This document shows positions 1,973-25,614 of a DNA stretch of 64,000 nt, piece by piece (the first letter of the stretch is position 1; every line of letters starts with the position of its first letter). This DNA comes from Promethearchaeota archaeon (lineage in GTDB: Archaea; Asgardarchaeota; Lokiarchaeia; Sigyniarchaeales; SOKP01), in the NCBI GenBank assembly GCA_019058365.1, contig JAHPZE010000004.1:32001-96000 (forward strand). Direction: 5' to 3'. The notes under the pieces are model-generated. The model was not told where the DNA came from. It was given only the letters and a program-made list of their open reading frames with translations, and searched no databases. The translations under genes and the position numbers were made by a program.

Positions 1973-2628
1973 TCTGATAAATAATCTGCTATCTCTTCCT
2001 CAGAAATCTCCCCAATACGCAAAAATTTTATCTTTTGAGAGGTACAATCAATGATAGTAGTAGGGAGTTTCGATTTTGACTTACCTCCATCAACAATATA
2101 GTCTATAGGACTTAATATTTTTTTTGTTACTTCTTCTCCACTAATTGAGGGCGGTTCTCCAGAATAATTAGCAGAAGTCCCTATAATTCCACCGAAATGT
2201 CCTTCTTCCTTTAGTAAATTTAAAATGCTTAAAATTATTTCATTTTTAGGGACTCGTAAACCTATTGTATTTTGAAAGGCTGTAACTTCTGGAGGAATAA
2301 TACAAGGCTCTTTTTTTTTTAATATCATTGTTAATTGACCTGGCCAATATTTGATTGCGAGTTTTCTTGCGATATTATTAAATTCAGCAATTCTAGTAGC
2401 TTCTTCATAATCTGAAACCAATAATAATAATCCTTTTGATCTATCTCGAAATTTAATGTCATAAATTTTATTTATAACTTCTAAATTTTGAGGGTCTCCT
2501 CCAATTCCATAAACACTGTCGGTAGGAAAACTAATTATTTTTCCTTGAACTATAAAATCAACTGCAGTTTTTAAGTAGACTTCAATATCTTTTAATTTTT
2601 TTCCTGCTAATTTAACTAAAAATCCCAT
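1969..2628 (-). CDS. tsaC: Threonylcarbamoyl-AMP synthase, short TsaC/YrdC form without the SUA5 C-terminal domain
   Basis: FPTDSVYG, KxR, WPGQLT, GLRVP, TSANYSG, PTTIID and RIG motifs; 219 aa. Confidence 0.92.
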   Translation of the reverse strand: MGFLVKLAGKKLKDIEVYLKTAVDFIVQGKIISFPTDSVYGIGGDPQNLEVINKIYDIKFRDRSKGLLLLVSDYEEATRIAEFNNIARKLAIKYWPGQLTMILKKKEPCIIPPEVTAFQNTIGLRVPKNEIILSILNLLKEEGHFGGIIGTSANYSGEPPSISGEEVTKKILSPIDYIVDGGKSKSKLPTTIIDCTSQKIKFLRIGEISEEEIADYLSE

Positions 2629-2660
2629 AAATGTTAGTTATTTTTTTTTCCTTATACTAA
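2596..2660 (-). repeat. Intact copy of the tsaC 5' end plus upstream motif, duplicated at 8236-8301
   Basis: 2596-2628 vs 8236-8268 match at 28/33 nt; CTTATACTAA lies 22 nt (2651-2660) vs 23 nt (8292-8301) from the start codon. Confidence 0.8.
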
Positions 2661-2689
2661 TATAAATTTTTCTTTCAATATTATTTCAT

Positions 2690-4141
2690 TTAGAAATCAA
2701 ATGAATTAGAAAAAGAATCCAATTTTTTATACTTACTTGAAATTTTAATTATATTTGATCGTTTTTTTGTACTTTTGTATCTTTTTATTGGAAGTATAAT
2801 GCCTTCCTGTGAAGCTAATTCCCTCCACCGTACTTTCCAACTAGTGGGAATTGTATTTTGCTTTAAAGATTTTATATTTTTTTGTAAAATTCTGGTAAAG
2901 AAATCAAATAATTGTATGAAATGCTGCTTAGAGCTTGTAATGAAATTATGATAATCTTTGAATAAAAATACTAAATTATCTGGTCTTATATCAACTTTTT
3001 TAAAATTAATGTGATGCAATCCTATTTCACCATTTAAATAATCCTGCAACGTAAAAACTTCACCAGTTAAGATATCAACAAAATTCCATTGGTAATATTT
3101 TTTTAAATAATTAAAAAAACTTTGAAAACTTGAAAATGTTTTCGGTGGATCAATTATTATTAGATTATTCTGGCCCATTATCATGACAGTTTGAAACAAT
3201 GCATTAGAGATCCTAAATTTTTGCGATTTAAATTTAGGAGGATAACCATGCGAAGTAAGTTCGACCCCTAATTGCTGATATGTAGGTTCAAATTCCTCAA
3301 TTAATTGAGTCATTGATTTTCCTATTCTTTCAATGAACCACTCATATCTTATTTTATTTAAATTAATATAAGAATCTATATCAATACCAATTTGATCTGT
3401 TTCTTTTCTAAGATTCTTTATAGTAGGGTAATAATTTCCATTTTTAATTTCAAGATATTTAGAATCCAAAAAATCCTTTAAACACCGCCCATCACTCATT
3501 ATACCAACGTCATATAGGTATTCTGTTAAATTATTTGCTATCCTATTAGCACACAACCATCGGGAAATGTAATCTGTTAAATAATTAAGATTGACAAATT
3601 CATCAGTAATAATATTGATATTCTCAGCTGTAGGGATAAAAACATGATTTTTTATGTCCATTATTCGAGGATCAAGAATTTTCTTTAATTGGTTGTAGTA
3701 TAATCCCAGTTTCGCCTGATCTTTTAGTTCACTAAGAGAGGTACCATTTTGCTTTAACCAATCATAGGTTATTTTGCTTATTTCTTCATTAGTTAATCCT
3801 TCAATTTCAGCAAAATCTGGTCTTTCTTGAAGCAAATTATCAATAGTCGGAAGAAATTCAAGTTTCTCAATTTTTTTTCTCATTTTATTCAAGAATTCGA
3901 TCATTTTCGCATTTTTAATTGAACCCGCTTCTAATTTTAATTTAATTAAACTCTCAAATCTTATCTCCTCTTTTTCATATCTAGATTTAAACCAAAATAT
4001 AATATAATGTGGATCGAATTTTTCCACACCAGAATCTTGAAGAACTCTGTTGTAAGTGGGTATATATTTTAAGTTATTAATTTCATTTATTTTAGAATCT
4101 AAAAAACGGTAAATCCTTTCTAATATTGATATATTATTCAT
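2690..4141 (-). CDS. HNH endonuclease with four N-terminal 'PT...W' repeats (putative DNA-binding)
   Basis: C-terminal LHHINFKKVDIRPDNLVFLFKDYH fits an HNH motif; repeats begin YIPTYN, FLPTID, FIPTAE, YYPTIK. Confidence 0.6.
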   Translation of the reverse strand: MNNISILERIYRFLDSKINEINNLKYIPTYNRVLQDSGVEKFDPHYIIFWFKSRYEKEEIRFESLIKLKLEAGSIKNAKMIEFLNKMRKKIEKLEFLPTIDNLLQERPDFAEIEGLTNEEISKITYDWLKQNGTSLSELKDQAKLGLYYNQLKKILDPRIMDIKNHVFIPTAENINIITDEFVNLNYLTDYISRWLCANRIANNLTEYLYDVGIMSDGRCLKDFLDSKYLEIKNGNYYPTIKNLRKETDQIGIDIDSYINLNKIRYEWFIERIGKSMTQLIEEFEPTYQQLGVELTSHGYPPKFKSQKFRISNALFQTVMIMGQNNLIIIDPPKTFSSFQSFFNYLKKYYQWNFVDILTGEVFTLQDYLNGEIGLHHINFKKVDIRPDNLVFLFKDYHNFITSSKQHFIQLFDFFTRILQKNIKSLKQNTIPTSWKVRWRELASQEGIILPIKRYKSTKKRSNIIKISSKYKKLDSFSNSFDF

Positions 4142-4426
4142 TTTTCATCCAATTTCTTCTAACTTTTTCTAATAACATTAAATTACTCTTGATTATTCTA
4201 TTTAAATTCATAATTAATCCCAAAAATATCCGGAGTTAAGTAATTTAGGATACTATCAAGGGCTTAATAATATATAATAAATTTTTATTTAAAAATCTTA
4301 TTATATTCTTAGTCTCTTTATATTATCTTTATATAATTTTCAGCTGATATTTTTACTAAATAAATTTATATGCGTTTTTTACTATTTTTTTATTAAAAAC
4401 TAACTAAAAATGAAAAAGAATTAATT

Positions 4427-4753
4427 ATGGAAGATAAATATACACTGAAAATCCCAATGGAAATAAAAGATCTAATCCAGAAATATATTGAAAGAAATCC
4501 TTCACTTGGATTTAAGAAAGTTTCAAAATATATATTACATTTATTACAAATTGAAGCTAAAAGAATATTAGATAATAATCCCGAATTAGATGATATCGTT
4601 AAAGTAGATAAAAATACTTATGTAAAAAGGTCTGCTTTATCAAAATATAAAAAAGGAGAATTAAAAGATAATTGGCAATCGTTTAAAATAAATTTTGAAA
4701 CCGGAGAGATCACTAAAATTGAAGATGAGATTAATAATAATAAAAAGAAGTAA
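4427..4753 (+). CDS. Ribbon-helix-helix (CopG-like) DNA-binding protein
   Basis: YTLKIP beta-strand followed by two helices (IKDLIQKYIE, LGFKKVSKYILHLL). Confidence 0.55.
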   Translation: MEDKYTLKIPMEIKDLIQKYIERNPSLGFKKVSKYILHLLQIEAKRILDNNPELDDIVKVDKNTYVKRSALSKYKKGELKDNWQSFKINFETGEITKIEDEINNNKKK

Positions 4754-4849
4754 AAATCTATATTCCATTCATTAATAGTAATTTCTTTTCAGATTTCAGG
4801 AGTTAATATAATAAATTCTAGTCCAAATTCTTGACTAACTTTTAAAAAA

Positions 4850-6625
4850 TTAAAATTCATTTTTGAAAAACATTTTTTCTTGTATATCACCTAGTCTACA
4901 AATAACATAGTCATCCGGTAAAAAATTATAGCCTAGTTCATCCTTCATTTTTTCTTCTATTAGTAAATCATTCGATTTGAGGGTTGTAATGTATTGAAAA
5001 TTTCTTACCTTAGATTCTTGAAAAATGTAATTTAAAACATTTACTTTAGTTAGAGTATCCATTTCTGTAAAAATACCATCATGTATAATAAATTTTGGAA
5101 CATATCTATTCTCAATTATGTTTCTTATAAAAATAGTAAAATCATAAACAAATAATTTATATCTTGTTTTTCCAAGCGAATCTTCTCTTGGAACTTGAAC
5201 TTCAATCTTTAAAGGGATCTCATTAGATCTAGTTGCTTCAAAAAATTCAATGTTTAAAAATGCTTCTGTTATTTTTTCTTGTAAATTAATTGTCTTTTTT
5301 ACAATATTTAAAAAGGTGGAGGAAATCTTCTCTCTTTCTTGTTTTAAATCACTTATCTCCTTCTTTAAAATTTTTTCTGATTTAGACTTATTTACTTTTT
5401 CTTCGGTTATTTTCAATTCAACACTATCAATTTTTTTAAAATAAGTGTTAATTTCCTCATATTTTTCTTTTTCTTTTATTAGTTTTTCGTATATGTTCTT
5501 AATACTATCTAATGCATCTTTTTCATCTAATTTTTGATATAATTTGCTCCTTCTTGAATCTAAATCAATCAATTTTTCTTGGATTTCTTTTCGTTGCTTA
5601 TTTAAATTATCTATCTCTGAATTCAAAAAGTTTTTTCGGTTTAATGATAATTTCTCTCGAAATTCAAGGACTTGTTGAAGTTTATCTTTAATTATAGGAG
5701 TTATCTTTTTATTAACCTCATTATATATTCTAATAACTTGATCTTTATCAAATTCTGGTAGTTTCAATTCAAAACTTTTTTTAAGATTTTTTAATCTTAT
5801 TTCTATTTCATGTTTTTTTTTTAAAAGAGAAGATACATCATTTGATAAATTTAATATTTCTTCTTCTAAATCTTCATATAACTTATTTATTCGAAAGAAA
5901 TCTATCTGTTCTTCATATTGTTTTATTCTTTCTTCGAGGAGTATCTTTTCAGATTTTATTTCATTATAATTATTACCGTTTTGTTCCATTGATTCAATTA
6001 AATTGGTCTTTTGATCTTCAAAAACTGAAATAGTTTCATTTATTTTAACCGCATTTGAAAAATTATAATTAGGGAGATTCATTAAAATCAGATTTATATT
6101 CAAATAATCTCCCTTCTTTTTTGATGTGTGAATAAAATTTACAGGATTTGTAATTGATGAAATTTTACTATCGTCTTTAATAAAAAATATTATTAGATCT
6201 CTAAAATATTTAGAATAAATATCTCCTTCATAATCTAAATGACCAAAAATATTGTCAAATAAAATTGTTTTTGCTTCCTTTATACTATATTCTATTAATT
6301 TTGAAAAATTCATACCAAGTTTAACTTTACTTAACTTGTTGAACTCTTTTTTTATGAAGAAACTTTCTCCTTTTATTTCAAGTTCTAATGTTGCCGTATG
6401 ATTTCTAAGAAATGTGAATTTTTTTTGCTGAAAAAGATTCCGAGAAGCACTAGAAAGAAACATTAAGTCTATTAAATTGACTATTAGTGTTTTTCCAATA
6501 CCATTTAATTCTCCTCTTCTTCCCTTTTCAGTTTCATATTCCCCAATAATTATATTTAATCCATCTTTAAATCTAATCTCATCAAATGCTTTTGTCTCAG
6601 AAAAGAGCCTTTTTAGAAATGTCAT
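4850..6625 (-). CDS. lmuB: SMC-like ABC ATPase of an ABC-three-component/Lamassu system (DUF2326, LmuB-like)
   Basis: IRFKDGLNIIIG, Walker A NGIGKT, long central coiled coil, Walker B FIIHDG, FQYITT, C-terminal FFKNEF. Confidence 0.82.
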   Translation of the reverse strand: MTFLKRLFSETKAFDEIRFKDGLNIIIGEYETEKGRRGELNGIGKTLIVNLIDLMFLSSASRNLFQQKKFTFLRNHTATLELEIKGESFFIKKEFNKLSKVKLGMNFSKLIEYSIKEAKTILFDNIFGHLDYEGDIYSKYFRDLIIFFIKDDSKISSITNPVNFIHTSKKKGDYLNINLILMNLPNYNFSNAVKINETISVFEDQKTNLIESMEQNGNNYNEIKSEKILLEERIKQYEEQIDFFRINKLYEDLEEEILNLSNDVSSLLKKKHEIEIRLKNLKKSFELKLPEFDKDQVIRIYNEVNKKITPIIKDKLQQVLEFREKLSLNRKNFLNSEIDNLNKQRKEIQEKLIDLDSRRSKLYQKLDEKDALDSIKNIYEKLIKEKEKYEEINTYFKKIDSVELKITEEKVNKSKSEKILKKEISDLKQEREKISSTFLNIVKKTINLQEKITEAFLNIEFFEATRSNEIPLKIEVQVPREDSLGKTRYKLFVYDFTIFIRNIIENRYVPKFIIHDGIFTEMDTLTKVNVLNYIFQESKVRNFQYITTLKSNDLLIEEKMKDELGYNFLPDDYVICRLGDIQEKMFFKNEF

Positions 6626-6637
6626 ATTTATTTTTTT

Positions 6638-6913
6638 TTATTTTAGAAATTTATCCATTTTAGATTGGGAAGATCCTCTCATTACTATTCTATAATCTTT
6701 AAAATATATAACATCTATGAAATATAGAAATGTTATTGCATCAAGTAATAGATTGATTGTTCTCCTTGAATCTTCTTCAATAAATGTTTTAAGTATATCA
6801 TCTAAAATAACGTATTTTTTTTTTTTTAAACGTTCTTTAATTAATTGAATTACTTCCGCACTTATTATTAGTAAGTTAAGTGACAGATCTGATTCAGGTT
6901 CTGGGATAATCAT
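6638..6913 (-). CDS. lmuC: ABC-three-component middle component (LmuC-like); start at 6913 overlaps the upstream stop (ATGA)
   Basis: ~91 aa, MIIP....L...L..I.AE.I and LLDAITFLYFID pattern; sits between effector and ATPase genes. Confidence 0.7.
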   Translation of the reverse strand: MIIPEPESDLSLNLLIISAEVIQLIKERLKKKKYVILDDILKTFIEEDSRRTINLLLDAITFLYFIDVIYFKDYRIVMRGSSQSKMDKFLK

Positions 6914-7800
6914 TTTGTTGGATCTCTTCCAATTATACAAATTTCAAACATATAATGTATTATTATCTTTAACCAATACATATAGTAATCATCATTTAAA
7001 TGACTTTGACCAAGCAAATTTAGTATATTTCTGATTAAAGTATCGAAATTTGGATTCTTGATATATTTTTCGTATGTACTTTGAAATTTGGATTTTAGAA
7101 CTCTTTGGTCATTACTATTTAGTTTTTCGAAATAATCTTTAAAAATATAGATACTATTGAAATACTCTTGTTTAAAATACTTAGTTTTTGCTTCCCAATA
7201 AGTTTCCTCAAAATTTTCTTTTATCTTATCCATTAATTTAGGAGGTATTTGATTAAAATCATCATTTGAAATATTTATTTTAAATGAAATAATATCACTA
7301 ATAATTATATCAAGAACGTTATAATCAACAAATTTACTATCTATATCTAAGTATTTCGTTAATTTTATAATTTGTGAATAATCAAAAGTCTCAAATATCA
7401 AATCTTTAATTTTTTTGATATCATATATTTCTCTAGGATGCGCCAGATTAGTTAAGAATTGAAATGCTTCACCTGTTATTTTTCTATTACAAACTGGTAC
7501 CCATTGTATTTCATGAGATCCCCATTTTTTTTTAAATGTATTATAATCATCTGTAAATTTTGTTTTAAAAAGAGATAAGTTATATTTAGTACTTTCAGGA
7601 GCATATACAGCATAAATTTTCTCTACTGAACCATCATTTCTTTTTAAAATACAATCAGCTCCTAAATCGGAACTATCAGCTAATGTTTGTATTAAATTTC
7701 CATATTTTTGTTTAAGAACAAACTGGAATAAATGTTGAAAATCAGTCCCAAATTTTCCAATAATTTTTGCATCAATAACAGCTTTTAGAGTATTATTCAT
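6910..7800 (-). CDS. lmuA: Lamassu/ABC-3C effector: restriction-endonuclease-fold N-terminus plus C-terminal ABC-3C domain (LmuA-like)
   Basis: G.DFQ.LF, DLGAD, YAVYAPE, KF.DD pattern; C-terminal IIIHYMFEICIIG; first gene of the operon. Confidence 0.7.
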   Translation of the reverse strand: MNNTLKAVIDAKIIGKFGTDFQHLFQFVLKQKYGNLIQTLADSSDLGADCILKRNDGSVEKIYAVYAPESTKYNLSLFKTKFTDDYNTFKKKWGSHEIQWVPVCNRKITGEAFQFLTNLAHPREIYDIKKIKDLIFETFDYSQIIKLTKYLDIDSKFVDYNVLDIIISDIISFKINISNDDFNQIPPKLMDKIKENFEETYWEAKTKYFKQEYFNSIYIFKDYFEKLNSNDQRVLKSKFQSTYEKYIKNPNFDTLIRNILNLLGQSHLNDDYYMYWLKIIIHYMFEICIIGRDPTK

Positions 7801-8235
7801 CTTTTCTTATTTTATGTTTAATCACTAGTAATTTTCTATTATGGAGAAGAGCTTTATTTATCTTTACGAGTCTTTAGAGTAATAAATCTAACGCTTTCAA
7901 TTTTTATATATTTTTGACTTTTATGAATACTAATGATAAATTTATATCTACAACTTTATATAAAATTTGTTTACTAATGAGAAATTAAATAATCAAATTT
8001 TATGGATTTCAGGAATTTATAGTAAATTATAATTATTCAATCATTCTTGAATGAATTGAATAATGTTTTTTCAATATTCAAATAATTTATCCAAAAATAA
8101 CTTTTCTAAGATAAATTTAAATACATGCAAAATTTGCCTTCAAACCAACTTTAAAAATTCAGAAAGCATATAGACCAATAATTCTATCTATAACATTATA
8201 ACCATTTTTTCTTACAGAAATTTAAATTTTAAGAT

Positions 8236-8301
8236 TTTTTTCCCAGCTAGTTTTATTAAAAATCCCATGTGAGTCCTTTAAAAATTTAAAACTTATACTA
8301 A
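8236..8301 (-). pseudogene. Displaced 5' fragment of tsaC (MGFLIKLAGKK) with upstream motif
   Basis: ATG at 8268 reads MGFLIKLAGKK vs intact MGFLVKLAGKK; three of four changed codons are synonymous; similarity stops after codon 11. Confidence 0.8.
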
Positions 8302-8328
8302 CAAAGTAGATAATAAAAAATATAAAGA

Positions 8329-13609: not shown

Positions 13610-13700
13610 TTATCCATAATGCTTCTGTTCTTCTTGTTCTTCATCAATAGTCTCATTTGAAATCTCTTCCAAACCACTTATCGCTAAGGAATTCTTTGTA
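13610..13700 (-). pseudogene. Displaced, frameshifted 3' end of the acyl-CoA dehydrogenase gene at 19479-20723
   Basis: Reads YKEFLSDKWFGRD / ISNETIDEEQEEQKHYG* across one frameshift vs intact [30 protein letters not shown]; 20/30 aa identical. Confidence 0.85.
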
Positions 13701-13947
13701 CCAATTATGTTAAATAATTAAGGACATTATTTCAATGGTTTCAGTAAAAAAAAACAAGCCAAATAAATAATCTGATGATGTTCAAAATTACATTATTTTT
13801 TTCTCAATTAGAAAGATTAATTATTCTTTAGTTAGATAGAATATTAATTTTTAAAAAAAAGAATCTAATCAGTTTTCAATCCTAATTTAGATCTCTCTTT
13901 AAAGTATCATAATAAAAATGTTTAGTTAGCCGAGGGGAAACTTAGAA

Positions 13948-15615
13948 TCAGCGTCTGCCAGGAGGACCTCCACCACCTCCACCCACCGAACCTACCGTCG
14001 TTACCATACTCGTTATCGTAAAGGTATAGGCTTTTGTTCCTGGCGAATATATTCCTCCACTATATAATGAATCTTTAACTGTTCCTGTTGAGCTACCACC
14101 TGTATATATATAATAAGTGGTACCCAATTCGAACTCTGAAGAGCAAACTGCAATGGATTGATATTTCTTTGTAGGTGCAAATGTCACAATTTCATTTCCT
14201 TCTACATCTTGAATATTCACGAGAGTTCCTACAGATAGAGTGCTTGTAAATCCGACCAGCACAGAATATTGTGTTGAGGTGATACTCGGTGCCTGTGCCA
14301 TTCCTGAGCTTCCTACAGCGACTAAGAATCCTCCTGTCATAAGGAATGATCCATCATAATCTAATGGTCCATTGTAATCCATAGTTGGTCCATTTATTAG
14401 AAGTGTCCCCGCACTCATAGAGACACCCCCATTAATATCAATTCCATCCCCTATAGAATCAATCGATATATATCCTCCTGTAATGGTAAGAGAACTTCCT
14501 CCCTTAGTAGAACTTACAGCATTTATTCCATCATCACTGGAATCTATGTGGATCGATCCTCCAGTTATTGATATTTCTTTACTCTCAAGACCTTCATAGC
14601 ATTCTACAATATTGATATCTCCACCGTTGATTTCCAATGATGTTTCAGCATGAATGCCGTCATCATCGGTATATATAGTAATATCCCCTCCATTTATGGA
14701 AATTTTATTATCTGAATGGATTGCATCATCCTTCGAATAGACCATAATACTCCCGCTTTCTATAGTTATATCTTCTGTAGATTTAATTCCTTTCCCCTCC
14801 CCTGCGTCCACATCTATTGAAATTGTACTATTTATAATAAGAACTAATGTTTCTGCTTGTATGCCATCATCTTGTGAAGTGATGTCTATTATGCTTGATC
14901 CTATAGCGATATATCCTTTATCTGGATCCCCTTCATAATCCGATTGTAATCCATCGTTTCCTGCTATAATCTCAATATCTGCATCGATGATGGTTAGAGA
15001 GTCTTTTCCTTTTAGTGCATCATTTTGTGAGTTTATTTGGAGTGTTCCTTTCTTTATGCAAAGATCGTCATCACTTTGAATCCCATTATTATAGTTTGCA
15101 TTAATAATTAAATTCCCAGTCCCTGTAATATTGAGATCATCATTGCTGAAAATCGCGGCTTTGGGTTCATCTTCATCTTGGATTTCAAAAATATATGTTT
15201 CTGCATCAGTCAAAACATTTGTTGTCCCTGAGGCTAAAATTATTTCAACATCATCAGCATTTCTAATGAAGATTGGGGCACTACTTAAAGATGTAATGGA
15301 TGTTCCGTTAAGAATTAATTTAACTACACCCTTCTCGTCTGTGTCTACAATTATTTGACCATCATCTAATGATCCTTTTATAACATAAGTACTAGCGGAC
15401 CAAATTGTCATCTTATTCTTTTCAATAGTAGCTCCTCCTCCATCCAATAATATATCTGTATTGTTAAAAGTAACATAAGATATAATTGAATTATCCCAAG
15501 TAGGAGTAATATCTCCCGTTTCTTCCGTTGTATTGTGGTCGCTAAAAACAGCTCCACTTAAAAGCACAAACAAAAGGATTGAAGCTAAAATTAAAGGGGC
15601 TCCTATCTTTTTCAT
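13948..15615 (-). CDS. Secreted beta-helix carbohydrate-binding protein (Cthe_2159/DUF4353 family)
   Basis: Signal peptide; GSLDDGQIIV, SSAPI, AAIFSNDDL.I.GTG, repeated DGI/DDAIH, GPLDYDG, AVGSSGMAQ; Gly/Pro tail. Confidence 0.85.
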   Translation of the reverse strand: MKKIGAPLILASILLFVLLSGAVFSDHNTTEETGDITPTWDNSIISYVTFNNTDILLDGGGATIEKNKMTIWSASTYVIKGSLDDGQIIVDTDEKGVVKLILNGTSITSLSSAPIFIRNADDVEIILASGTTNVLTDAETYIFEIQDEDEPKAAIFSNDDLNITGTGNLIINANYNNGIQSDDDLCIKKGTLQINSQNDALKGKDSLTIIDADIEIIAGNDGLQSDYEGDPDKGYIAIGSSIIDITSQDDGIQAETLVLIINSTISIDVDAGEGKGIKSTEDITIESGSIMVYSKDDAIHSDNKISINGGDITIYTDDDGIHAETSLEINGGDINIVECYEGLESKEISITGGSIHIDSSDDGINAVSSTKGGSSLTITGGYISIDSIGDGIDINGGVSMSAGTLLINGPTMDYNGPLDYDGSFLMTGGFLVAVGSSGMAQAPSITSTQYSVLVGFTSTLSVGTLVNIQDVEGNEIVTFAPTKKYQSIAVCSSEFELGTTYYIYTGGSSTGTVKDSLYSGGIYSPGTKAYTFTITSMVTTVGSVGGGGGGPPGRR

Positions 15616-16277
15616 GATGCATAATCTCCATTATAGCTAACAAGTGCAGCATCTTTTACGCCTGGAATCTTAAGAAGGTGATCTACAGAATCAGTATGGT
15701 CCCTTTTCATACTGACTTCAAGCATTATTTCAATCCCCGATGCATTTACCGTTCTTGATCTGAGTTTATGCCGAGGAAGAACACTTTTTACTTTCTCGTC
15801 TACTTCTTTTTCATAATGAACTACAAGTAAATAAGGTTCCCTTCCAAGAACATCCATTTTACACATTACATATACAATTGCTCCAATAATGGGTGTTGCA
15901 ACCAGAGCTACTATATAAAGTGCTGCACCACAGGTTATTCCTACGGCAATTGCCCAGAATGTAAAAATAACGTCTGTAGGATCCTTAATCGCAGCTCGAA
16001 ATCTGACAATACTCAAAGCACCTACCATTCCTAATGATAAGGAAATACTGCTACTTATTGGGATAATAATCATTGCAGTTATAAGCGATGTCAGAACTAG
16101 CCCGACATTGAAATTTTTATTATATAATACACCCTTAAAGGTATTCTTATAGATGTAGTAAATAAACAATGATATCACAAATGTAAAAAACATTGAAAAG
16201 ATTATTCTCTCCACAGTAATATCTTGAAATGTGTTGGAAGTGTTAAATAAAGCATCAATCAGTTCTTCAATACTCAT
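15612..16277 (-). CDS. DUF4956 family membrane protein
   Basis: SLGMVGALSIVRFRAAIKDP.D..F.FWAIA.GI..GA signature. Confidence 0.9.
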   Translation of the reverse strand: MSIEELIDALFNTSNTFQDITVERIIFSMFFTFVISLFIYYIYKNTFKGVLYNKNFNVGLVLTSLITAMIIIPISSSISLSLGMVGALSIVRFRAAIKDPTDVIFTFWAIAVGITCGAALYIVALVATPIIGAIVYVMCKMDVLGREPYLLVVHYEKEVDEKVKSVLPRHKLRSRTVNASGIEIMLEVSMKRDHTDSVDHLLKIPGVKDAALVSYNGDYAS

Positions 16278-16388
16278 TTTTTTATCACTTATTTTTCATT
16301 TTTCTAATTTTAAATTTTTGAGTTTAATTTTTTCTTTTTTATAATTTTTTTTACATCTTACTAAATTTACACAATATTTTGGAGGTTT

Positions 16389-17105
16389 TTATTGATCCTC
16401 CCAACTATTAAACGTGGAAAAACGTTTACAATTCACAAACTTACTTATCGATGATTGGGGCGAGATAATACATGAAATAAGTCCATGAATTACTTGGGGT
16501 AGTACACTATCATATTTAACTTCCAAGATAACAGGATAATCGGAGATTCCCATCATAAAACTCTCTTTATTAAATAAGTCTGTTGCATTGAGGCCCGTAT
16601 GTAGACCTATATCAAAAGATATCCTTACATTTCCAACAGGATAGACGTAGACCTCTCGATAATAGTCTGTAATTACATTAGGTTTGAGTAAATTACGCTT
16701 GCATTCTAAATAGAATGCTCTTAAAACCTTATGTTGTGACTCTGCTAAAAAATCTATATCACCCTGAAGAATCCGATCTACATCCCTCCGATTTAGAGAC
16801 ACAGATTCTTTGCCAATTAGATTATCTATTTTGGATTTTTTTTCAAGCTTGATACATTCTTGATTATGATTATATATTCTCAAACGATATTTCTTTCGGC
16901 AATAAACTCCGGCTAATTTATCAGAAAGTGCTCCATTTCGACAGTCATCAAAATAAAGACTCCGTACATGATAAAGTCCATCTAAACCACAATGAGGATC
17001 AAGATTAAGAACTTCTTTTAACCTACTCTTTAAGAGTCGATACTCCATATAGTTTATCATATATTTCAACTCATGTCGTAAATTTAAAGATCCACGTTTA
17101 ATCAT
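16389..17105 (-). CDS. VTC-domain (polyphosphate polymerase-like, TTM fold) protein
   Basis: RHELKY, Y.VRSLYFDD, RKKYRLRIY, KLEKK, Y.RE.Y, VRISFD, ILEVKY, SISKF. Confidence 0.9.
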   Translation of the reverse strand: MIKRGSLNLRHELKYMINYMEYRLLKSRLKEVLNLDPHCGLDGLYHVRSLYFDDCRNGALSDKLAGVYCRKKYRLRIYNHNQECIKLEKKSKIDNLIGKESVSLNRRDVDRILQGDIDFLAESQHKVLRAFYLECKRNLLKPNVITDYYREVYVYPVGNVRISFDIGLHTGLNATDLFNKESFMMGISDYPVILEVKYDSVLPQVIHGLISCIISPQSSISKFVNCKRFSTFNSWEDQ

Positions 17106-17108
17106 TCT

Positions 17109-17891
17109 CTATTTCATCACTCTTTCTTTAATTTTTAATTTATTGGAGAATATAATTCCTAATAGCAGGATCGCTGTAAATACAATGAGAGTCACCATTA
17201 TCCATGGGGCTAAATTATACTCTGTTTTTTCAATATTATTAGTTGAGCCTGGTGAGGGGGAACTCAAATAATCCCACTTTTCACCTCCATCAGATGTACG
17301 TCCATAGGAGATATCCCGTAATTGCTTCTGAAAAGACACAGAATCAATAATAGTTTTTCCATCGGCTGCTATTATTGCTATGAAGTCCCCATTTGCATCA
17401 AGTTTAAACGGTAAATGTAAAATATCTTCTGCTACACTTCCGTCTGCCCAGATCAATAAATAATCTCCTGGATTGATAACTGTCGTATTTGGAAATTGCC
17501 AAAGCATTGGAGTATCTAAATCATCGGTTAAATACAAATCCGATAAATTTAACGCAATACTCCCTGCATTGTATAACTCAATCCAATCCTCATAAGTTCC
17601 ATTAGGACTGGTAATAGTTACATCATTATCTGCCATCAACTCATTGATATACAATTGATTAGAGATTAGATTTATATCATTTACAATTTCATCCTCATCA
17701 GTTAGAATTTCTCCTGCATCTTCTGCTTTGATTTTCATAATTGTGTATTGATTAACAATTGTGTTCCCTTCGGATAAATCCAAGCTCTCATTATCAATTC
17801 CAATACTAAAATTGCAGTGAAACATTGTTATCTGTAAAATAATAAAACCAATTAGTATACCACATTGTAGTTTCCGTTTTTGCATCACCAC
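17109..17891 (-). CDS. Membrane-anchored lamin-tail-domain (LTD) protein
   Basis: INELMADN, DWIELYN, LYLTDD, YLLIWAD, HLPFKL, SYGR..DG, PSPG..N; N-terminal signal-like and C-terminal TM segments. Confidence 0.85.
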   Translation of the reverse strand: MVMQKRKLQCGILIGFIILQITMFHCNFSIGIDNESLDLSEGNTIVNQYTIMKIKAEDAGEILTDEDEIVNDINLISNQLYINELMADNDVTITSPNGTYEDWIELYNAGSIALNLSDLYLTDDLDTPMLWQFPNTTVINPGDYLLIWADGSVAEDILHLPFKLDANGDFIAIIAADGKTIIDSVSFQKQLRDISYGRTSDGGEKWDYLSSPSPGSTNNIEKTEYNLAPWIMVTLIVFTAILLLGIIFSNKLKIKERVMK

Positions 17892-18187
17892 TATTGTTCA
17901 ACATATATTTTTTTCAAATTTGAGCGGTTCTATTATTTTAAAACAAATTTGAACGTCTCATAAATGGGAAATTGTATTATTATATTTAAACATTAAAGGA
18001 CCATTGTTCCATCATGTTACTCATAAAAAATAGAGTAAATTCAGGATATAAATATCATATAACGAGCTAGAAATAAGGTTATAGAAGCAATATGCAAAAA
18101 AGGTAAGAAAAGGCTATAGAATATTGGCTATCGGATTCAAACATATTCAATAGATCATTTTATGATGAAAGAAAAAAATTAAGTTAT

Positions 18188-19399
18188 TTAATCCTTTTGT
18201 CTAAGATCAGGTGCTTTAAGGAGAATTAACCCCGTTAAAAGCATTATACAAGCAGCTACCGCGAAAGGTGGCCATCCTACTAATTCTATTAGAGATTCTC
18301 CCCTTATAGCAGTGACACTAGTAAGATCTACAACAAATCCCATTAATAATGGGCCACATACAAAACCTATATCTCCAATCGTCCTATACACACCCATATA
18401 AATCTCAAGCTTATCTTTAGGAGCAATATCTGTAACATAAGCAGCAATTGGTCCTGATAATCCAATTATTGCGCCATAAATAAATATAACTAATGAAATA
18501 TAAATTATATTTGTTGTAATAGCAATCCATAGGGTTATTGGAGCAGAAATGATAAGAGATAATAACAGCGGTGTACGTCGTCCTATTTTATCTGAAATTA
18601 AACCTATAGGAACCATAGTAATAGCGGTTGCAATACCTGCTATAGTTAATAGTATGCCAATATCAAACTCATTTAAACCAAGATCATTTCCCGAAAAAAG
18701 AGGTACAAGCGTATTTCTTACTCCCGTTCTTATAAAGAACAACGAAAAAATTGATGGAAGAACAGGAATAAATTTTGGATCTTTTAAACTATACCATGCT
18801 TGGTGATAAAGTTCCTGTATCTTGAAATGTTCTTCATCATTAGTATTATTTACATGTGGCAAAATGAGAGTGGGAATAATCCCACTAGCAGATATAATAG
18901 CATAAGCAAAAAATGGGGCAGTGATACCATAAGAATTCGCTATAAAACCACCAAAACTCGGTCCAAAAATTGCTCCTAATAATAATAATCCGGAATAAAT
19001 ACTCATTAAAAATCCCCTTCTCTCTGGGCTAGCTACCAATGCAATATATATAGTTGCAATTGTTACATAAATTGCAGAACCAAATCCTTCAATGATTCGA
19101 GCAAATAGTAAGATCCAATAATTTTGGGCTAATCCTGCCATGATTGAGGAAGATGATACAAGTATCAATCCCACTAGCATTAAGCTCTTTTTATTATACC
19201 TTTGAGCTAAGAAACCTGCAGGTAAATCAATAAACATACGAGCTATACCGAAAGCCGCCACAACAAGTCCAACAAGTGTATAATTCACATTAAAAGATTC
19301 GGCATAATAAGGTAAAATCGGAGCGATAATACTCAATCCCAACAACACAAGAAACGTGACAACCGAAAGATTTAATGTTGTTATAATATCTTTTTTTAT
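18188..19399 (-). CDS. MFS transporter; probable ATA start at 19399 (ORF track starts at GTG 19348)
   Basis: Multi-TM MFS pattern, SDKIGRR motif A; in-frame extension IKKDIITTLNLSVVTFL completes TM1; AAGGGAGA 5 nt upstream. Confidence 0.85.
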   Translation of the reverse strand: MKKDIITTLNLSVVTFLVLLGLSIIAPILPYYAESFNVNYTLVGLVVAAFGIARMFIDLPAGFLAQRYNKKSLMLVGLILVSSSSIMAGLAQNYWILLFARIIEGFGSAIYVTIATIYIALVASPERRGFLMSIYSGLLLLGAIFGPSFGGFIANSYGITAPFFAYAIISASGIIPTLILPHVNNTNDEEHFKIQELYHQAWYSLKDPKFIPVLPSIFSLFFIRTGVRNTLVPLFSGNDLGLNEFDIGILLTIAGIATAITMVPIGLISDKIGRRTPLLLSLIISAPITLWIAITTNIIYISLVIFIYGAIIGLSGPIAAYVTDIAPKDKLEIYMGVYRTIGDIGFVCGPLLMGFVVDLTSVTAIRGESLIELVGWPPFAVAACIMLLTGLILLKAPDLRQKD

Positions 19400-19478: not shown

Positions 19479-20723
19479 TCAACCATAATGTTTTTCTTCC
19501 TCTGCTTCACTATCAATAGCATCTTTTTCAATATCTCGACCTTGCCATTTTTCACTTAAAATTTCCTTATAATATTCATGTTGGATAATAAGATTCATAA
19601 TTTCTGTTGTTCCCGTCCATATCTCACCTATTCTAGCATCTCGTAATAATCTTTCCATTGGATAGACAGTTGTATAACCTATTCCTCCTAAAATTTGCAT
19701 TGAATTATTTATAACTTTCCAACACGATTTTGTTGAAAACTTCTTTGATTCGGATACTAATCTTCTTTGAAGTGCGGGTGGTGCTCCAGCATCAATACTT
19801 TTAGCTGTATTATAAACAATAGCTCTTACTGCGTCTAAAAGTGTGATACAATCAGCAATTAAAAAGCTAACTGCTTGAAAATTTCTAATAGGTTGTCCAA
19901 ATGCTTTTCTTTTAGTACTATATTTTGTAGCAATTCTTAAACAAGCGCGAGCCAGACCTATGAAACCCGATGCAGTAGTCAATCGCTCTGGAACCATCAT
20001 TTGATAAAATATTTTTCCACCAGCACCCTCCTCTAAAATAATATTTGCTTTTGGCACTTTAACATTATTAAATTTTATTCTGCCTGCACCACCACCTCTA
20101 GTTCCAAGTATACCATAAATATATTCAGTATTAACACCTTCAGTTCTATCCACTATGAATAAACTTAACGTTTTATGAGGATCTGCTTTTGGATCTATAT
20201 TTGTTTTTGCATAAACTAAAAAGAAATCAGCCCCTTCAGCACCTACAACAAATCGTTTTTCTCCATTCAAATTATAATAATCCCCTTCTTTAACAGCAGT
20301 ACATGTCGCTCCAAAGAAGTCTGAACCTCCTCTTGGTTCAGTTAACGCTTCAGCAGTGAACTTTTTCCCCTCACACATGGGTTTAAGATATTTTTGTTTT
20401 TGTTCCTCTGTCCCAAAAATATTTAATGCTTCACCACATATACTGGGCAAAGAAAATAAACATGCAAGTGAACTTCCTAATACCCCGATTTCTTCTTGAG
20501 CAATTATTTCACTCTCCCAATTCAATCCCCGTCCTCCATATTTTTTTGGGAATCTTATTCCTATTAGATTTTGGTTAGCCAAAGCATTTAACCATTCAGA
20601 GGGATACTGGATTTCATCCTTATCCATTTTTTTTAATAATGAAGGAGGAACGGCAGTTTTTACGAATGTTCGAACTTCTTCTCTAAGCTTTTTGTTCTCT
20701 TCAGTTAATAAATAATCATACAT
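19479..20723 (-). CDS. Acyl-CoA dehydrogenase
   Basis: [60 protein letters not shown]. Confidence 0.93.
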
Positions 20724-20966: not shown

Positions 20967-22235
20967 ATGTTCACTAAAATTAAAACTACGTACAGAGAAT
21001 ATCCCAACGCATTTAAAGTGCTGACTCTCGCCACTTTTATTGACATGTTAGGAAGTTTCTTATTATATCCTTTTTATGCACTTTATGTAACCGAACATTT
21101 TGGAGTGGGGATGACTCAAGTTGGATTCCTATTTTCTATTTTCTCAGCGGGAAATATATTCGGTGGAATCCTCGGAGGTGCATTAGCCGATAAATATGGC
21201 CGTCGTGCAATGGTCCTGATTGGATTGGTTGTAAGTGGAACAGGAAGTATTTTTTTGGGATTAGTTAATGATCTGAGGGTATTTTACATTCTCGCGGGTT
21301 TTTTAGGGTTAGTAGGCAATTTTGGAGGCCCAGCACGACAAGCAATGGTAGCAGATTTACTTCCAAAGGAAAAACAAGCAGAAGGATTTGGAATTCTACG
21401 AGTATCTTTTAATCTTTCCGCAACAATCGGGCCTATCCTTGGTGGATTTTTAGCAACCAAATCTTATATGTTATTATTTATTGCGGATGCTGTGAGTAGT
21501 TTAATTACCGCTGTTATTGTATATATGGTTATTCCAGAGACAAAACCCCAAAAACAAGATGATAAACCAGAAGAAACTGTAATGAAAACTATTATAGGAT
21601 ACAAACATGTGTTAAAGGATTGGGTGTTTGTTTTGTTTCTTTCTGTTTCTGCTATAACGGTATTAGTATATATGCAAATGAATAGCACTCTTTCGGTATT
21701 TTTACGGGATGTTCATGGATTCCCTGCACAGAGTTTTGGGTTTTTGTTAAGTATGAATGCCCTTATGGTTGTTTTATTTCAATTCTGGATAACTAGGAAG
21801 ATATCAAAATATGCTCCCATGAAGATAATGGCTTTTGGAACATTGTTTCTTATGATTGGTTTTGGAATGTATGGTTTTATTTCTGAGCCATATCTTTTTT
21901 TCATTGCTATGGCAATAATTACGATAGGAGAAATGATAGTATTCCCAACCGGGCAAAGTGCAGCTGCCTCTTTTGCTCCGGAAGATAAACGAGGACGATA
22001 TATGGCAGTTTATGGTTTCCAATGGATGATCCCGAACCTATTTGGAGTTTTAGCCGCTGGATTGATTATGGACTCTATTGGACCAAATTGGGTGTGGTAT
22101 TTAGCTGGGATTCTCTCTCTATTCTCCATGATAGGATTTTGGTTAATTCATGGGGTCACTAAAGAACGTTTATCAAAAGAAAAAAAACCTAAGAAAGGAG
22201 AATTGCTTGAGTTTAGCGTTCCTTCAATCGAATGA
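20967..22235 (+). CDS. MFS transporter (MdtH-like multidrug family)
   Basis: GGALADKYGRR motif A, PARQAMVADL, APEDKRGRY. Confidence 0.88.
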   Translation: MFTKIKTTYREYPNAFKVLTLATFIDMLGSFLLYPFYALYVTEHFGVGMTQVGFLFSIFSAGNIFGGILGGALADKYGRRAMVLIGLVVSGTGSIFLGLVNDLRVFYILAGFLGLVGNFGGPARQAMVADLLPKEKQAEGFGILRVSFNLSATIGPILGGFLATKSYMLLFIADAVSSLITAVIVYMVIPETKPQKQDDKPEETVMKTIIGYKHVLKDWVFVLFLSVSAITVLVYMQMNSTLSVFLRDVHGFPAQSFGFLLSMNALMVVLFQFWITRKISKYAPMKIMAFGTLFLMIGFGMYGFISEPYLFFIAMAIITIGEMIVFPTGQSAAASFAPEDKRGRYMAVYGFQWMIPNLFGVLAAGLIMDSIGPNWVWYLAGILSLFSMIGFWLIHGVTKERLSKEKKPKKGELLEFSVPSIE

Positions 22236-23610: not shown

Positions 23611-24291
23611 ATGAATTTATTTAAAGTTTTTACATTAACTCCTTGGGATTCGCTCAATTCAGATACTTTAACAGAAATTAAATTATATTCATTGAAAAAT
23701 ATATTTAAGACGTTTCCTGTAATTGAACCCGAGTTTTTTGATGATTTACTCTCACATTTGTATAAATTCAAACACTATTCATGGGTTGAGAGCATTAAAA
23801 GAATTGTTGGACCTAGTGATGAAGATTATGATATAAAGCCTTGGAATCTAATGTGGGGTATGGATAATGAAAGACGAATATTCCAATTCTTATTTCAAAA
23901 AGTAAAAGATGAACTTAAAGATTCACAAGCAACACTGGTAGCATTAGCACCACCAGAATTAGGGAAATTATTTACTCAATATAAAGAAGAAGCGATCTTA
24001 AGAACTTTATCTTTACTCAATACTCCTAAGAAAATGAAATTCTTGATGATCTTAGCACCTAAAGGAAAATCTATTGCCGAAGAACAACAACTACTCCATA
24101 TAAATAAGGAAGATTTAGAAAACCTCAAGTTTAATAAAATACTCAAACAAATGCCAAATATTAAAGGGGAGTGGATCTTAACTCATTCCCCATGTTGTTC
24201 CAACTGTAAAAGAGAGATTACAGAGATAAAGGGCTTGAATGTGGAGTTTCTTAAATTTAAATGTCCTTATTGTGGGCATCAGAATGATTGA
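23611..24291 (+). CDS. Hypothetical protein with C-terminal zinc ribbon
   Basis: 226 aa ORF; CSNC...CPYCG at the C-terminus. Confidence 0.7.
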   Translation: MNLFKVFTLTPWDSLNSDTLTEIKLYSLKNIFKTFPVIEPEFFDDLLSHLYKFKHYSWVESIKRIVGPSDEDYDIKPWNLMWGMDNERRIFQFLFQKVKDELKDSQATLVALAPPELGKLFTQYKEEAILRTLSLLNTPKKMKFLMILAPKGKSIAEEQQLLHINKEDLENLKFNKILKQMPNIKGEWILTHSPCCSNCKREITEIKGLNVEFLKFKCPYCGHQND

Positions 24292-24346
24292 CTTATTTTC
24301 ACTTTCGTATAATACTACAAAGATACAAAGGGATTTTCGCGACACG

Positions 24347-24796
24347 TTAACGAGATTTCGTGATACGTTTTCTTTCTTTATAAATTCCTATTATTGAGAG
24401 AATTATACTTATGGAATACCCAAATAAGGAAATAGGTATGACAATAAAAGATATAAGGCTATATATAAAAACTGAAGCGAGTAATACTAAAGTAGCTGTA
24501 ATAACCAGCTCACTATGATAAAAATTTTTACGTTTTAGGTATATTCCTTCAAAAAGCATCATTATGGTAAAAACTACTGCGGAACCAGTTAAAAATACGG
24601 TATAGAAAGAGCTATCGAAAAAAAGGGTTGTAATATATTCATGAGTACGGGGGATAAAAATGTAGAATCCAAAAGACCAATGAATGAAATCACCAACATC
24701 AAATCCTATAGCTTGGCTTACATGGGTTGGAAAGATTAATGCTAGTGTTGTACACAATGAAGCCATATAGAAATAGCCACAAGGCTTTTCTTTCAT
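24347..24796 (-). CDS. Hypothetical membrane protein (about 4 TM helices)
   Basis: 149 aa, mostly hydrophobic segments. Confidence 0.6.
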   Translation of the reverse strand: MKEKPCGYFYMASLCTTLALIFPTHVSQAIGFDVGDFIHWSFGFYIFIPRTHEYITTLFFDSSFYTVFLTGSAVVFTIMMLFEGIYLKRKNFYHSELVITATLVLLASVFIYSLISFIVIPISLFGYSISIILSIIGIYKERKRITKSR

Positions 24797-25007
24797 TGAA
24801 GATCTCTAGTTTTGCATATATTATTCTTTGCTTTATACTTATCAAACCTATCTTTATATATGTTTCTGTTGTCAGGGTACACTATTCAGATTAATGTGAT
24901 ACGTTATTTTTAAGGAATTTGGAATAATTAGAAGTTTAAAAATTTGAGTTTTAAGATAATTTTATACACATTCCTTTAAAGAGAATGTTAAAAAAAGGAG
25001 TGAATTG

Positions 25008-25250
25008 ATGGGGAGGAAGAAGAAATTCGGGGAAGAGTCGGATTTTGTGAGCGTTCGAGTTCCAAAGAGCAAGAGATAAGAATATAGAACTTCAATTAAC
25101 CATTTTGTAGAGAAAAAATTTGCGAGTGACTCGGATACTACTAGTTCTAATTCCACTATCAATCTTAATAAAAAAAGTTTAGATTGGTTTCGGAAATTTG
25201 AGGAATTTATACAAGAGCTCAAGAAAGAAGTGACAGAAAAGAGAAAATAA
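25008..25250 (+). pseudogene. RHH-like DNA-binding protein with an internal stop
   Basis: AGGAGTGA upstream; MGRKKKFGEESDFVSVRVPKSKR* (TAA 25077-25079); frame continues to TAA ending at 25250. Confidence 0.6.
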
Positions 25251-25258
25251 AAGAAATA

Positions 25259-25426
25259 AATTTTAAACCCTTTGAGGCAGTTTTAAGAATAATTTCTCAA
25301 GTTCGATGTAATCTTTTTCATGGGGAAAAGTTAATTTCAGAAGGAATCCAAATTAAAAGGGATAAAACATTAATTAAAGCAAGTATTTCAATTTTAGAAA
25401 TGCTTCTTAAGCAAATAATAAGTTAA
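25259..25426 (+). pseudogene. C-terminal fragment of a HEPN-domain protein
   Basis: LRIISQVRCNLFHGEK carries the R-x4-H HEPN motif; followed by KRDKTLIKASISILEMLL; no evident start. Confidence 0.62.
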
Positions 25427-25500
25427 ATTTTAAAATAATAGAAGATAGCTAAATTCTCCTTATAATTCTCTAAAATAAAATTTTATCCTAAAACAATCTT

Positions 25501-25614
25501 GAATATTCACCGCGTTGTCTAAACTGCTATGAAATGATTATAGAGATAAAGGGTTTGAATGTTGGGTTTCTTAAATTTAAATATCCTTATTGTGGGTCCC
25601 AGAAATTAAAGTAA
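25501..25614 (+). pseudogene. Displaced 3' end of the 23611-24291 gene
   Basis: EYSPRCLNCYEMIIEIKGLNVGFLKFKYPYCGSQKLK* vs THSPCCSNCKREITEIKGLNVEFLKFKCPYCGHQND*; one Zn ligand changed C to Y. Confidence 0.88.

Follow-up and report, generated by a model that had tools for sequence, protein, structure and literature searches.

The window, a 64,000-nt stretch of a Lokiarchaeia (Promethearchaeota) genome, holds three islands, each lying between an intact host gene and a diverged copy of the end of that gene. A sequence-only reading had taken them as signs that cargo is repeatedly gained by gene-end replacement, either through elements mobilised in trans or through uptake of related DNA anchored by one homologous gene. 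The features are listed below by window position, strand and, where applicable, basis.

1969..2628, minus: intact tsaC (Sua5/YrdC), chimaera of foreign nt 1-113 and native body (sequence comparison)
2515..2517, minus: Ser38 codon AGT, candidate part of a recoded target site (allele comparison)
2516..2628, minus: replacement 5' end of tsaC, nt 1-113, brought with the HNH gene (5'-end tree)
2690..4141, minus: candidate free-standing HNH homing endonuclease, 483 aa (helical N-terminal region and HNH motif)
4427..4753, plus: small protein, 108 aa, possibly ribbon-helix-helix-like as judged by eye (no Pfam or PHROG match)
4850..7800, minus: three-gene defence cargo, PDC-M68A/B, Lamassu/ABC-three-component-like (profile matches)
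8234..8268, minus: native tsaC 5' remnant, 35 nt, still behind porB and the native spacer (profile search)
13610..13745, minus: old acyl-CoA dehydrogenase (ACAD) 3' remnant, nt 1108-1244, with stop and frameshift (profile search)
13948..17891, minus: cargo cluster of LTD, VTC, DUF4956 and Cthe_2159
18011..18062, plus: fourth scar, consisting of PFK codons 211-227 fused to the spacer downstream of MFS
18188..19348, minus: MFS transporter cargo
19479..20723, minus: intact ACAD, foreign tip at ~nt 1173-1245, window 19479-19551 (sequence comparison)
23611..24291, plus: intact Zn-ribbon gene, foreign allele from ~24168 (sequence comparison)
24347..24796, minus: membrane-protein cargo, 149 aa (no Pfam match)
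25202..25426, plus: tail of a decayed gene, HEPN-like solely on account of an R-x4-H motif
25498..25611, plus: Zn-ribbon 3' remnant, hybrid (profile search)

Architecture of the three islands

On comparison with relatives, all three intact genes join a native body to a foreign end. The pairs proposed in the sequence-only reading are present, with two corrections to their spans: the parts upstream of tsaC align only loosely, and the ACAD match is longer. A profile search places the three remnants at 8234-8268, 13611-13745 and 25498-25606. At island 1, tsaC differs densely from the empty-site relative G046 at nt 13-113 and is identical to it at nt 114-149; the foreign segment is three times the length of the remnant. 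The pair itself (2596-2628 and 8236-8268) is 85% identical, and the remnant as a whole is 83% identical to its own intact copy; the porB end, spacer and tsaC remnant together reach 93.7% identity to G046. Trees of gene end and gene body, built for tsaC, disagree: the 5' ends of G000, G005, ENA301, G062 and G002 form a single clade (99/99), and the bodies of HNH-linked tsaC alleles form no single clade (AU p=3e-59).

The islands had all been described as lacking a mobility gene, which fails at island 1, where the 483-aa ORF sits between the chimaeric intact tsaC and the displaced native end. Its assignment as a nuclease is based on the motif HH-x11-N-x8-H (at ~2948-3019) and on the HNH_3 matches of its homologues (E 6e-5 to 6e-3), the protein itself falling below the Pfam HNH cut-off. 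The predicted fold over the motif has beta-beta-alpha topology, and the weak structural hits are often HNH proteins (Cas9, McrA, Cap5), none of them significant; fold searches with the full protein and the domain, as well as a PDB sequence search, returned no significant match, and a search for related loci with the HNH alignment returned no match. The layout of nuclease, chimaera and remnant also occurs in L301 and L307. Wherever the neighbour is visible, full-length homologues lie directly upstream of tsaC or ubiA. Ser38 of tsaC is encoded by AGT in 7/9 HNH-linked alleles versus 0/38 unlinked ones, not all of them independent, and by TCN in all nuclease-free alleles and also in two HNH-linked alleles. 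In ubiA, a 30-nt BHB intron is present in 5/5 HNH-linked copies versus 0/24 others (alleles again not all independent), which makes it a candidate for target protection against the nuclease family found at tsaC. Judging from these sequences, a selfish DNA-cutting enzyme probably drove the swap at island 1. The defence cargo matches PDC-M68B (4e-56), LmuB (1e-8) and PDC-M68A (0.004), together with DUF2326; a sigma-70 promoter scan, with a model unsuited to archaea, stayed at chance level.

At island 2, the ACAD body is 96% identical to G066, and the tip, which differs densely from G066 and G046, is 93% identical to G054 and 90% to G057. The ACAD pair (19483-19616 and 13614-13745) is 65% identical, and the remnant falls, with weak placement, on a long branch inside the group of G046/G066 ends. 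Instead of the single island first described, island 2 is nested and holds the PFK scar (18011-18062 versus 12983-13021, 87%). The MFS transporter also occurs in G005 (96%) and in the distant G062 (90%), and among 53 congeners no close VTC homologue was found (best 31% identity). A fixed remnant boundary at ACAD was considered and rejected as a local-alignment artefact; the G062 remnant extends further in.

At island 3, the Zn-ribbon gene switches to the foreign allele between nt 534 and 558. In its hybrid remnant, the inner 95 nt are 78% identical to native G005 and the outer tip plus spacer to FGGY is 95% identical; the pair (24185-24284 and 25505-25604) is 79% identical.

Relatives without the cargo have empty sites: most congeners have porB directly next to tsaC, and none of the three window sites is occupied in G003, G046 or G041. 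The Zn-ribbon site of G005 is read as empty because its two contigs overlap by exactly 55 nt. Apparent contig-end remnants in G066, and the Zn-ribbon one in G005, were set aside as indistinguishable from strain variants.

Gene-end copies across the genome

Scanning the whole genome with end fragments of its genes yielded 67 gene-end copies at 63 genes. These are the matches with scar-type side and orientation among 87 local ones (67/87; binomial p=4e-24), and the same local scan of three shuffles of the DNA gave 0 matches, so that repeated gene-end replacement is borne out for this genome. The proposal that it is a general route in Asgard archaea fared less well: scar density is 11 per Mb here versus 2 scars in 400 kb of a complete (single-contig) congener, and 400 kb surveyed in another family contained 0. 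Between the scars lie ~190 kb of the genome (50 scored islands, some overlapping). As judged by eye, the cargo consists mostly of ordinary Loki-type genes, and mosaicism among congeners runs gene by gene (for example, ZPR1 79% and ACAD 99% to G005).

Mismatches between copy and intact gene are concentrated at codon position 3 (32% versus 18% and 14%), which supports divergence of the paired copies as working alleles, and 27/50 remnants are broken. The differences had been called largely synonymous, which holds genome-wide and for ACAD (mismatches at position 3 versus the others, 24/12/9) but not for the Zn-ribbon pair (9/6/8).

Origin of the scars

At four sites, the switch to the foreign allele is found deeper in the gene than the inner limit of the remnant: tsaC (crossover nt 114-149 versus remnants ending at or before nt 87), Sir2 on contig C12 (~nt 400 versus 216), C7 (~nt 400-480 versus 1284) and C35 (~nt 790 versus ~1415). 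Because of this order, we favour one-sided homologous recombination with an illegitimate join (homology-facilitated illegitimate recombination, HFIR), followed by two-arm spread; the one-sided crossover, with recipient DNA lost to a non-homologous join, is seen at all four. At the Zn-ribbon gene, the crossover is marginally deeper than the remnant (534-558 versus 568), and rfcS shows the opposite order, not the one-sided HFIR pattern; that order would require secondary transfer, and the rfcS island has moved laterally. The tally leaves out C48, C2 and C16. The C54 remnant measures 248 nt in G005 and 105 nt here; remnants erode from inside, hence a gap between crossover and remnant is in itself no proof of HFIR. 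In the one readable join, at C12, an imperfect microhomology (7 of 9 nt) links the native remnant to a core gene that is the neighbour in the donor, at the 3' tip of that gene. The cargo of C12 Sir2 is present without a scar in G050 and G041, a donor-type arrangement. For the window's own joins, no donors were found. Homology-anchored uptake from relatives, the second of the two routes first proposed, is the best general reading.

We consider it fairly probable that the scars come from host recombination with DNA of related species, first seeded and then spread, with a free-standing HNH nuclease driving the process at tsaC and, probably, at a small number of further genes. In the seeding step, a donor fragment that has entered the cell would carry the donor allele of a gene end plus adjacent genes, and a homologous, presumably RadA-dependent crossover would take place inside the shared gene. 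The far end would be joined illegitimately near the recipient's own gene end, and only joins sparing the next gene would survive, leaving the recipient with a functional chimaera, the cargo and a 30-300 nt stretch of its old end. That old end would then serve as a second homology arm, so that the island could move between strains and species by double crossover, its cargo being swapped, stacked or eroded en route. For islands 2 and 3, the sequence of steps is one that we infer. At tsaC, the free-standing HNH nuclease adjoining the replaced end would supply both break and drive, cutting naive alleles near nt 90-115 and sparing its own recoded end, as WHO does at FBA1. Many scars are secondary transfers. 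In bacteria, HFIR occurs at frequencies orders of magnitude below those of homologous recombination (PMC5361080); ~60 scars therefore call for a high rate or long retention.

A larger role for nucleases, with nearly all scars seeded by free-standing homing endonucleases that later decayed or lost their place to cargo and nuclease-free HFIR a minor contributor, seems unlikely to us. An HNH tail does persist as a remnant beside tsaC amid changing cargo in G005, G050, G062 and G002, and nucleases adjoin intact scar ends at NOG1 on C30 (double HNH_3, 8e-12), C49 (LAGLIDADG_3, E=0.002) and C29 (motif only), yet a candidate is found at only 3-4 of ~63 scarred genes. No endonuclease gene adjoins the replaced ends of islands 2 and 3 in searches with this HNH family and Pfam, and the family has no member near the ACAD or Zn-ribbon ends in ~35 and ~21 loci, respectively. 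Some remnant boundaries cluster (Zn-ribbon 568, 570, 570; ACAD 1108, 1109), while others scatter (538-592 and 1061-1189), and the C12 insert is simply a piece of chromosome whose donor arrangement contains no nuclease.

Decidedly less probable is a Campbell-type route, in which a circle, formed from a donor fragment or by excision of an island between its repeats, enters the chromosome through one crossover. It would explain the C48 repeats, which span two gene starts (~770 nt), the rfcS order and the hybrid Zn-ribbon remnant; it also requires the crossover to fall within the remnant span and the intact gene to be native past that point, and the reverse is found at C12, C7, C35 and tsaC. Depth is flat over islands 1 and 2, and a search of contigs gave no well-supported joint of an excised circle.

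The trans mobilisation suggested earlier, with a relaxed site-specific recombinase inserting non-autonomous elements, is very improbable. The geometry equals that of attL/attR in icd, in a few scars the longest stretch of exact identity is close to the inner boundary, and two tyrosine recombinases are present (a XerA-like protein on C7 and an integrase on C46), neither within the window's islands. Searches of the genome gave no serine recombinase match and a single, broken DDE transposase (one transposase family searched). Against this stand 63 different targets without shared element ends or, by inspection by eye, a common motif at the inner remnant boundaries; crossovers are separated from the remnant boundary by tens to hundreds of nt instead of lying, as an integrase would have it, at the remnant's inner end within an identical core, a signature open to blurring by subsequent erosion or recombination.

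It is extremely improbable that the scars are local tandem duplicates that then decayed, or products of co-occurring strains assembled wrongly, even for a metagenome-assembled genome whose relatives G005 and G066 have contigs breaking at these gene ends: third-position bias extends to the 16 youngest scars (131 mismatches versus 73 and 56), remnants are broken, relatives lack the cargo at the site, scars also occur in the single-contig congener, and there is no sign of a chimeric strain join at islands 1 and 2, with an independent contig (probable source run) spanning 1400-9872 and thus island 1 with 0 differences at a flat depth of ~87, and a second sample of the same study bridging 1696-2700, 7430-8769, 12571-13713 and 17621-18261.

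Recombination with related-species DNA would make gene-end scars a quantifiable path of gene gain, one invisible to island finders that rely on integrases. A scar shows where an insertion took place and roughly how old it is, and in some cases points to the donor lineage; therefore, the growth of Asgard genomes becomes testable by comparative genomics. Core genes that carry, or are likely to carry, foreign ends (tsaC, rfcS, NOG1, acs) can mislead phylogenetic work on the group. In the tsaC element, archaea have a candidate for a free-standing homing endonuclease, whose target region is predicted, and the link between nuclease and protein-gene intron bears on intron invasion of coding sequence. 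Possible, if doubtful, is the wider view that Loki-type Asgard archaea owe much of their accessory genome to core-gene end replacement, with a large pool of free-standing homing endonucleases opening sites and carrying cargo between species; one nuclease family, protecting its target by tsaC recoding or by the ubiA BHB micro-intron, would then also spread introns into protein genes in the lineage closest to eukaryotes.

Comparison with known systems

The gene-end-swap architecture has close precedents in the yeast WHO elements, the fungal mORFs and HFIR displacement at Vibrio T6SS and Rhs loci. A replacement gene end is also supplied by SXT/R391 at prfC and by e14 and phage 21 at icd, where the old end becomes a pseudogene; such elements depend on a cognate integrase, use a single target and cross over within an identical core, and here none of the three holds.

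Displacement of T6SS effectors in V. cholerae and of Rhs C-termini (PMC5361080, PMC2884548) likewise combines one homologous anchor with one illegitimate join, shifts the old end back, forms arrays and is followed by later spread through ordinary recombination. HFIR was shown in competent bacteria and proposed for toxin loci, whereas we infer it at dozens of archaeal housekeeping genes in a genome in which DprA was not found.

The free-standing seg/mob endonucleases of T4-like phages, which use intronless homing (PMC2988022), resemble island 1 in that an intergenic HNH gene adjoins a conserved gene and flanking DNA is co-converted; they belong to phage genomes and are not known to leave a displaced gene-end remnant. 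Collaborative homing (PMC2988022) pairs nuclease and intron much as at ubiA, where the intron is a BHB micro-intron and not group I. The mORFs (mobile endonuclease ORFs; PMC3630166), found in the mitochondria of Allomyces and Glomus, put a related species' gene terminus in place of the native one, and the native terminus is left beyond the nuclease and matches empty-site relatives; these elements are organellar, affect 3' ends, use LAGLIDADG or GIY-YIG nucleases and carry little cargo.

Another close likeness, limited to island 1, is to WHO at FBA1 of Torulaspora/Lachancea (Coughlan et al. 2020, PMC7282813), where the nuclease gene is likewise flanked by a resistant, full-length chimaera on one side and a displaced piece of the old end on the other. 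That piece provides the second homology arm, trees of the gene end conflict, and such pieces can accumulate in stacks. WHO proteins are LAGLIDADG, intein-like with a zinc finger, and sit at the 3' end of FBA1, in contrast to the archaeal HNH protein at the 5' end of tsaC, where defence cargo also rides along. By analogy, island 1 is a WHO/mORF-like homing element with putative cleavage activity, placed at a 5' end.

Scars in the window and across the genome

The host genome (G000; G, C and L numbers denote congener genomes, contigs and related loci) comprises 4.74 Mb at 29.5% GC in 54 contigs, with the window at C39:32001-96000. The three gene-end pairs claimed by the sequence-only reading were all found again in the window, each combining an intact gene (native body, foreign end) with a scar, the remnant of the old gene end beyond the inserted cargo.

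Islands and nested scar in the window
2596-8301: island 1, at the 5' end of tsaC
13610-19571: island 2, at the 3' end of the acyl-CoA dehydrogenase (ACAD) gene
18011-18062: fourth scar, PFK codons 211-227, within island 2
24181-25614: island 3, at the 3' end of a Zn-ribbon gene

The probable source run, assembled independently, covers 1400-9872 with 0 differences and even depth, and a second sample bridges four of the junctions in islands 1 and 2. As the proposed comparison with relatives revealed, each of the three sites is empty in G003, G046 and G041; porB immediately precedes tsaC in most congeners. The same insertion places hold other cargo in other congeners, sometimes with remnants of their own: ACAD-end remnants also occur in G005, G062, G024 and G011, Zn-ribbon-end remnants in G045, G050 and G049, and FGGY-start remnants in G050 and L340. 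At the Zn-ribbon/FGGY junction of G050 (L118, L120, L121), Zn-ribbon 3' and FGGY 5' remnants alternate, with differing cargo.

The PFK scar indicates that island 2 is nested. The ACAD tip and MFS gene are common to the window, G005 and the distant G062, and in the order of events that we infer, the VTC cluster and the old ACAD remnant form a separate layer, probably inserted through PFK. This VTC/DUF4956/Cthe_2159 cluster (13948-17891), possibly polyphosphate-related and of bacterial origin, has a close homologue in 0/53 congeners.

Further observations concern individual genes and short sequences. A second MFS gene (20967-22235) occurs once here, but many congeners, e.g. G008, G045 and G062, have it twice in tandem as diverged copies (75-78%). 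A 151-nt segment from inside the Zn-ribbon gene also occurs on a different host contig (C24:32755-32905; 90% identical to window 23677-23827), and an ACAD 3' end lies far from ACAD amid unrelated genes in G041 (C3; L123:11965-12094; 94% to the G041/G050/G018 alleles). Short non-coding stretches at 16272-16349 and 24295-24450 recur at unrelated loci of several congeners (75-89%).

The scars are real and genome-wide. Searching 50-residue segments from the start, middle and end of 3748 proteins against intergenic DNA up to 40 kb away bore out the claim that gene-end replacement is repeated: 67 of 87 local matches, from 63 genes, show scar geometry (same strand; 5' copies upstream, 3' copies downstream; binomial p = 4e-24 vs an expected quarter), 52 of them at identity of at least 50%, and three sequence shuffles gave 0 local matches. 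Median remnant length is 48 residues and median island length ~2.5 kb. The mainly synonymous divergence noted for the window holds genome-wide, with mismatches at 32% of third codon positions vs 18% and 14% at the others. This bias persists among the 16 youngest pairs, and 27/50 remnants carry stops or frameshifts, which together indicate that both copies functioned as alleles, each with its own origin, until one decayed. Scar density is 11 per Mb here and 2 in 400 kb of the single-contig congener G006, with none in 400 kb of G032 (another family), samples of insufficient size to give the range. The cargo, classed by eye, consists chiefly of ordinary metabolic, transport and regulatory genes. 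Separately, a ~770-nt repeat at host locus L150 (C48:16900-22700) takes in the starts of a divergent gene pair together with the promoter; each gene is intact and has remnants as well, which differ in apparent age.

A candidate homing endonuclease at tsaC and ubiA

Island 1 had been read as lacking a mobility gene, a claim that does not stand, as its ORF 2690-4141 is a candidate HNH homing endonuclease. An HH-x11-N-x8-H motif is invariant over 15 homologous domains, weak Pfam HNH_3 matches occur in 5/12 close and three more distant homologues, and NUMOD3 repeats are present in one of the distant homologues. The Atlas (0.87 only) points to HNH proteins that bear homing-endonuclease repeats; the predicted domain model has a beta-beta-alpha arrangement and no significant fold match. 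Wherever the downstream gene could be read, which excludes G074 and two contigs that end early, full-length homologues lie 40-90 bp upstream of tsaC or ubiA, co-directionally. An imperfect inverted repeat (~70% over 136 nt) spans 4222-4354, between the HNH gene and a small divergent ORF.

In the trees proposed for ends and bodies, five tsaC 5' ends linked to this HNH family group as a single clade, on gene bodies of three unrelated kinds. The codon for tsaC Ser38, part of the conserved FPT[DN]SVYG motif, is AGT in 7/9 HNH-linked alleles, two deeply diverged among them, vs TCN in 38/38 others, and the return to native sequence follows directly after it. In G066, 77 nt of the element are left, with a crossover near nt 39 and the codon TCT. 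At ubiA (DGGGP synthase), an insert of 30 nt that contains an in-frame stop is present in 5/5 HNH-linked copies vs 0/24 nuclease-free ones, at position D-K/I-N; it is a bulge-helix-bulge intron whose central helix shows a compensatory change. Next to one nuclease family, a conserved site is altered in two different ways, by recoding in tsaC and by an insert in ubiA, as homing predicts. From these sequence comparisons, we consider HNH nuclease-driven homing at tsaC likely.

Candidate nucleases adjoin three further intact scar ends in the host genome.

ubiA inserts and further candidate nucleases
L304:5104-6009, L306, L393, L396, L294/L399: ubiA copies with insert, other Lokiarchaeia
C30:38440-98664 (L309-L311): defence island, with a double-HNH gene beside the intact NOG1 end
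L156:2426-3535: LAGLIDADG-like ORF (E=0.002) abutting a scarred gene at its intact end
L308:2957-3316: 119-aa HNH-like ORF abutting a scarred gene at its intact end

On C30, NOG1 and a duplicate of its 3' end bracket a defence island of 59 kb, whose genes look BREX-like and nurA-herA-mre11-rad50 by eye. This island includes one more scar, at nurA. No candidate nuclease of the HNH family was found beside ACAD or Zn-ribbon ends (about 35 and 21 loci).

Crossover positions and recombination routes

An integrase would place the native/foreign switch where the remnant ends on its inner side, circle integration would place it inside the remnant span, and one-sided recombination deeper within the gene. 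The evidence is against the scars being integrase products: the reported lack of integrases in the islands holds, searches of the host genome yielded two tyrosine recombinases, no match to resolvases or large serine recombinases and a single broken DDE transposase copy (one family searched), and no common motif is visible at scar boundaries. DprA was not found in the host genome.

A switch within the remnant span, as for circle integration, occurs at rfcS, where the remnant and the DNA upstream of it derive from a different lineage; this reads as double-crossover transfer of a pre-existing island. Deeper switches occur elsewhere. At tsaC, the remnant with its spacer matches empty-site G046 at 94% identity; in the intact gene, foreign sequence runs through nt 113 and gives way to identity with G046 over nt 114-149; independent tsaC remnants stop at nt 35, 85 and 87. 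The C12 Sir2 remnant is native over 216 nt and the intact gene foreign to ~nt 400; the join leads, via an imperfect 7/9 match, into the 3' tip of the MFS gene that lies upstream in the donor, and in G050 and G041 the same cargo is flanked by MFS and Sir2 and a scar is absent. At C7 and C35, remnants are native, with switches ~800 and ~600 nt deeper. The Zn-ribbon switch lies at nt 534-558, and the remnant begins at nt 568, its inner part foreign and its outer part native. This comparison is blunted by remnant erosion (C54), and donor sequence directly abuts the remnant only at the C12 join. In G050, the C35 gene end occurs several times, on different contigs.

Congeners are mosaic gene by gene: across window 1400-27300, identity to the three closest shifts over 79-99%, which shows heavy interspecies recombination in core genes. 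The probable common route is host recombination with congener DNA, with homing endonucleases as probable drivers at some genes.

Relation to known systems

Term searches in two papers on Asgard mobile elements (PMC8813620, PMC11529989) and a wider literature search that covered few subscription papers turned up no account of gene-end replacement. The general pattern of the scars matches the displacement by homology-facilitated illegitimate recombination that has been put forward for T6SS arrays in Vibrio and for Rhs loci (PMC5361080; PMC2884548 summarizes the mechanism). Island 1 appears to work like a WHO element, the yeast homing element at FBA1 (PMC7282813), and like a mORF, the mobile endonuclease ORF of fungal mitochondria (PMC3630166), but falls outside both families in its HNH nuclease, its 5' gene end, its archaeal chromosomal setting and its defence cargo.
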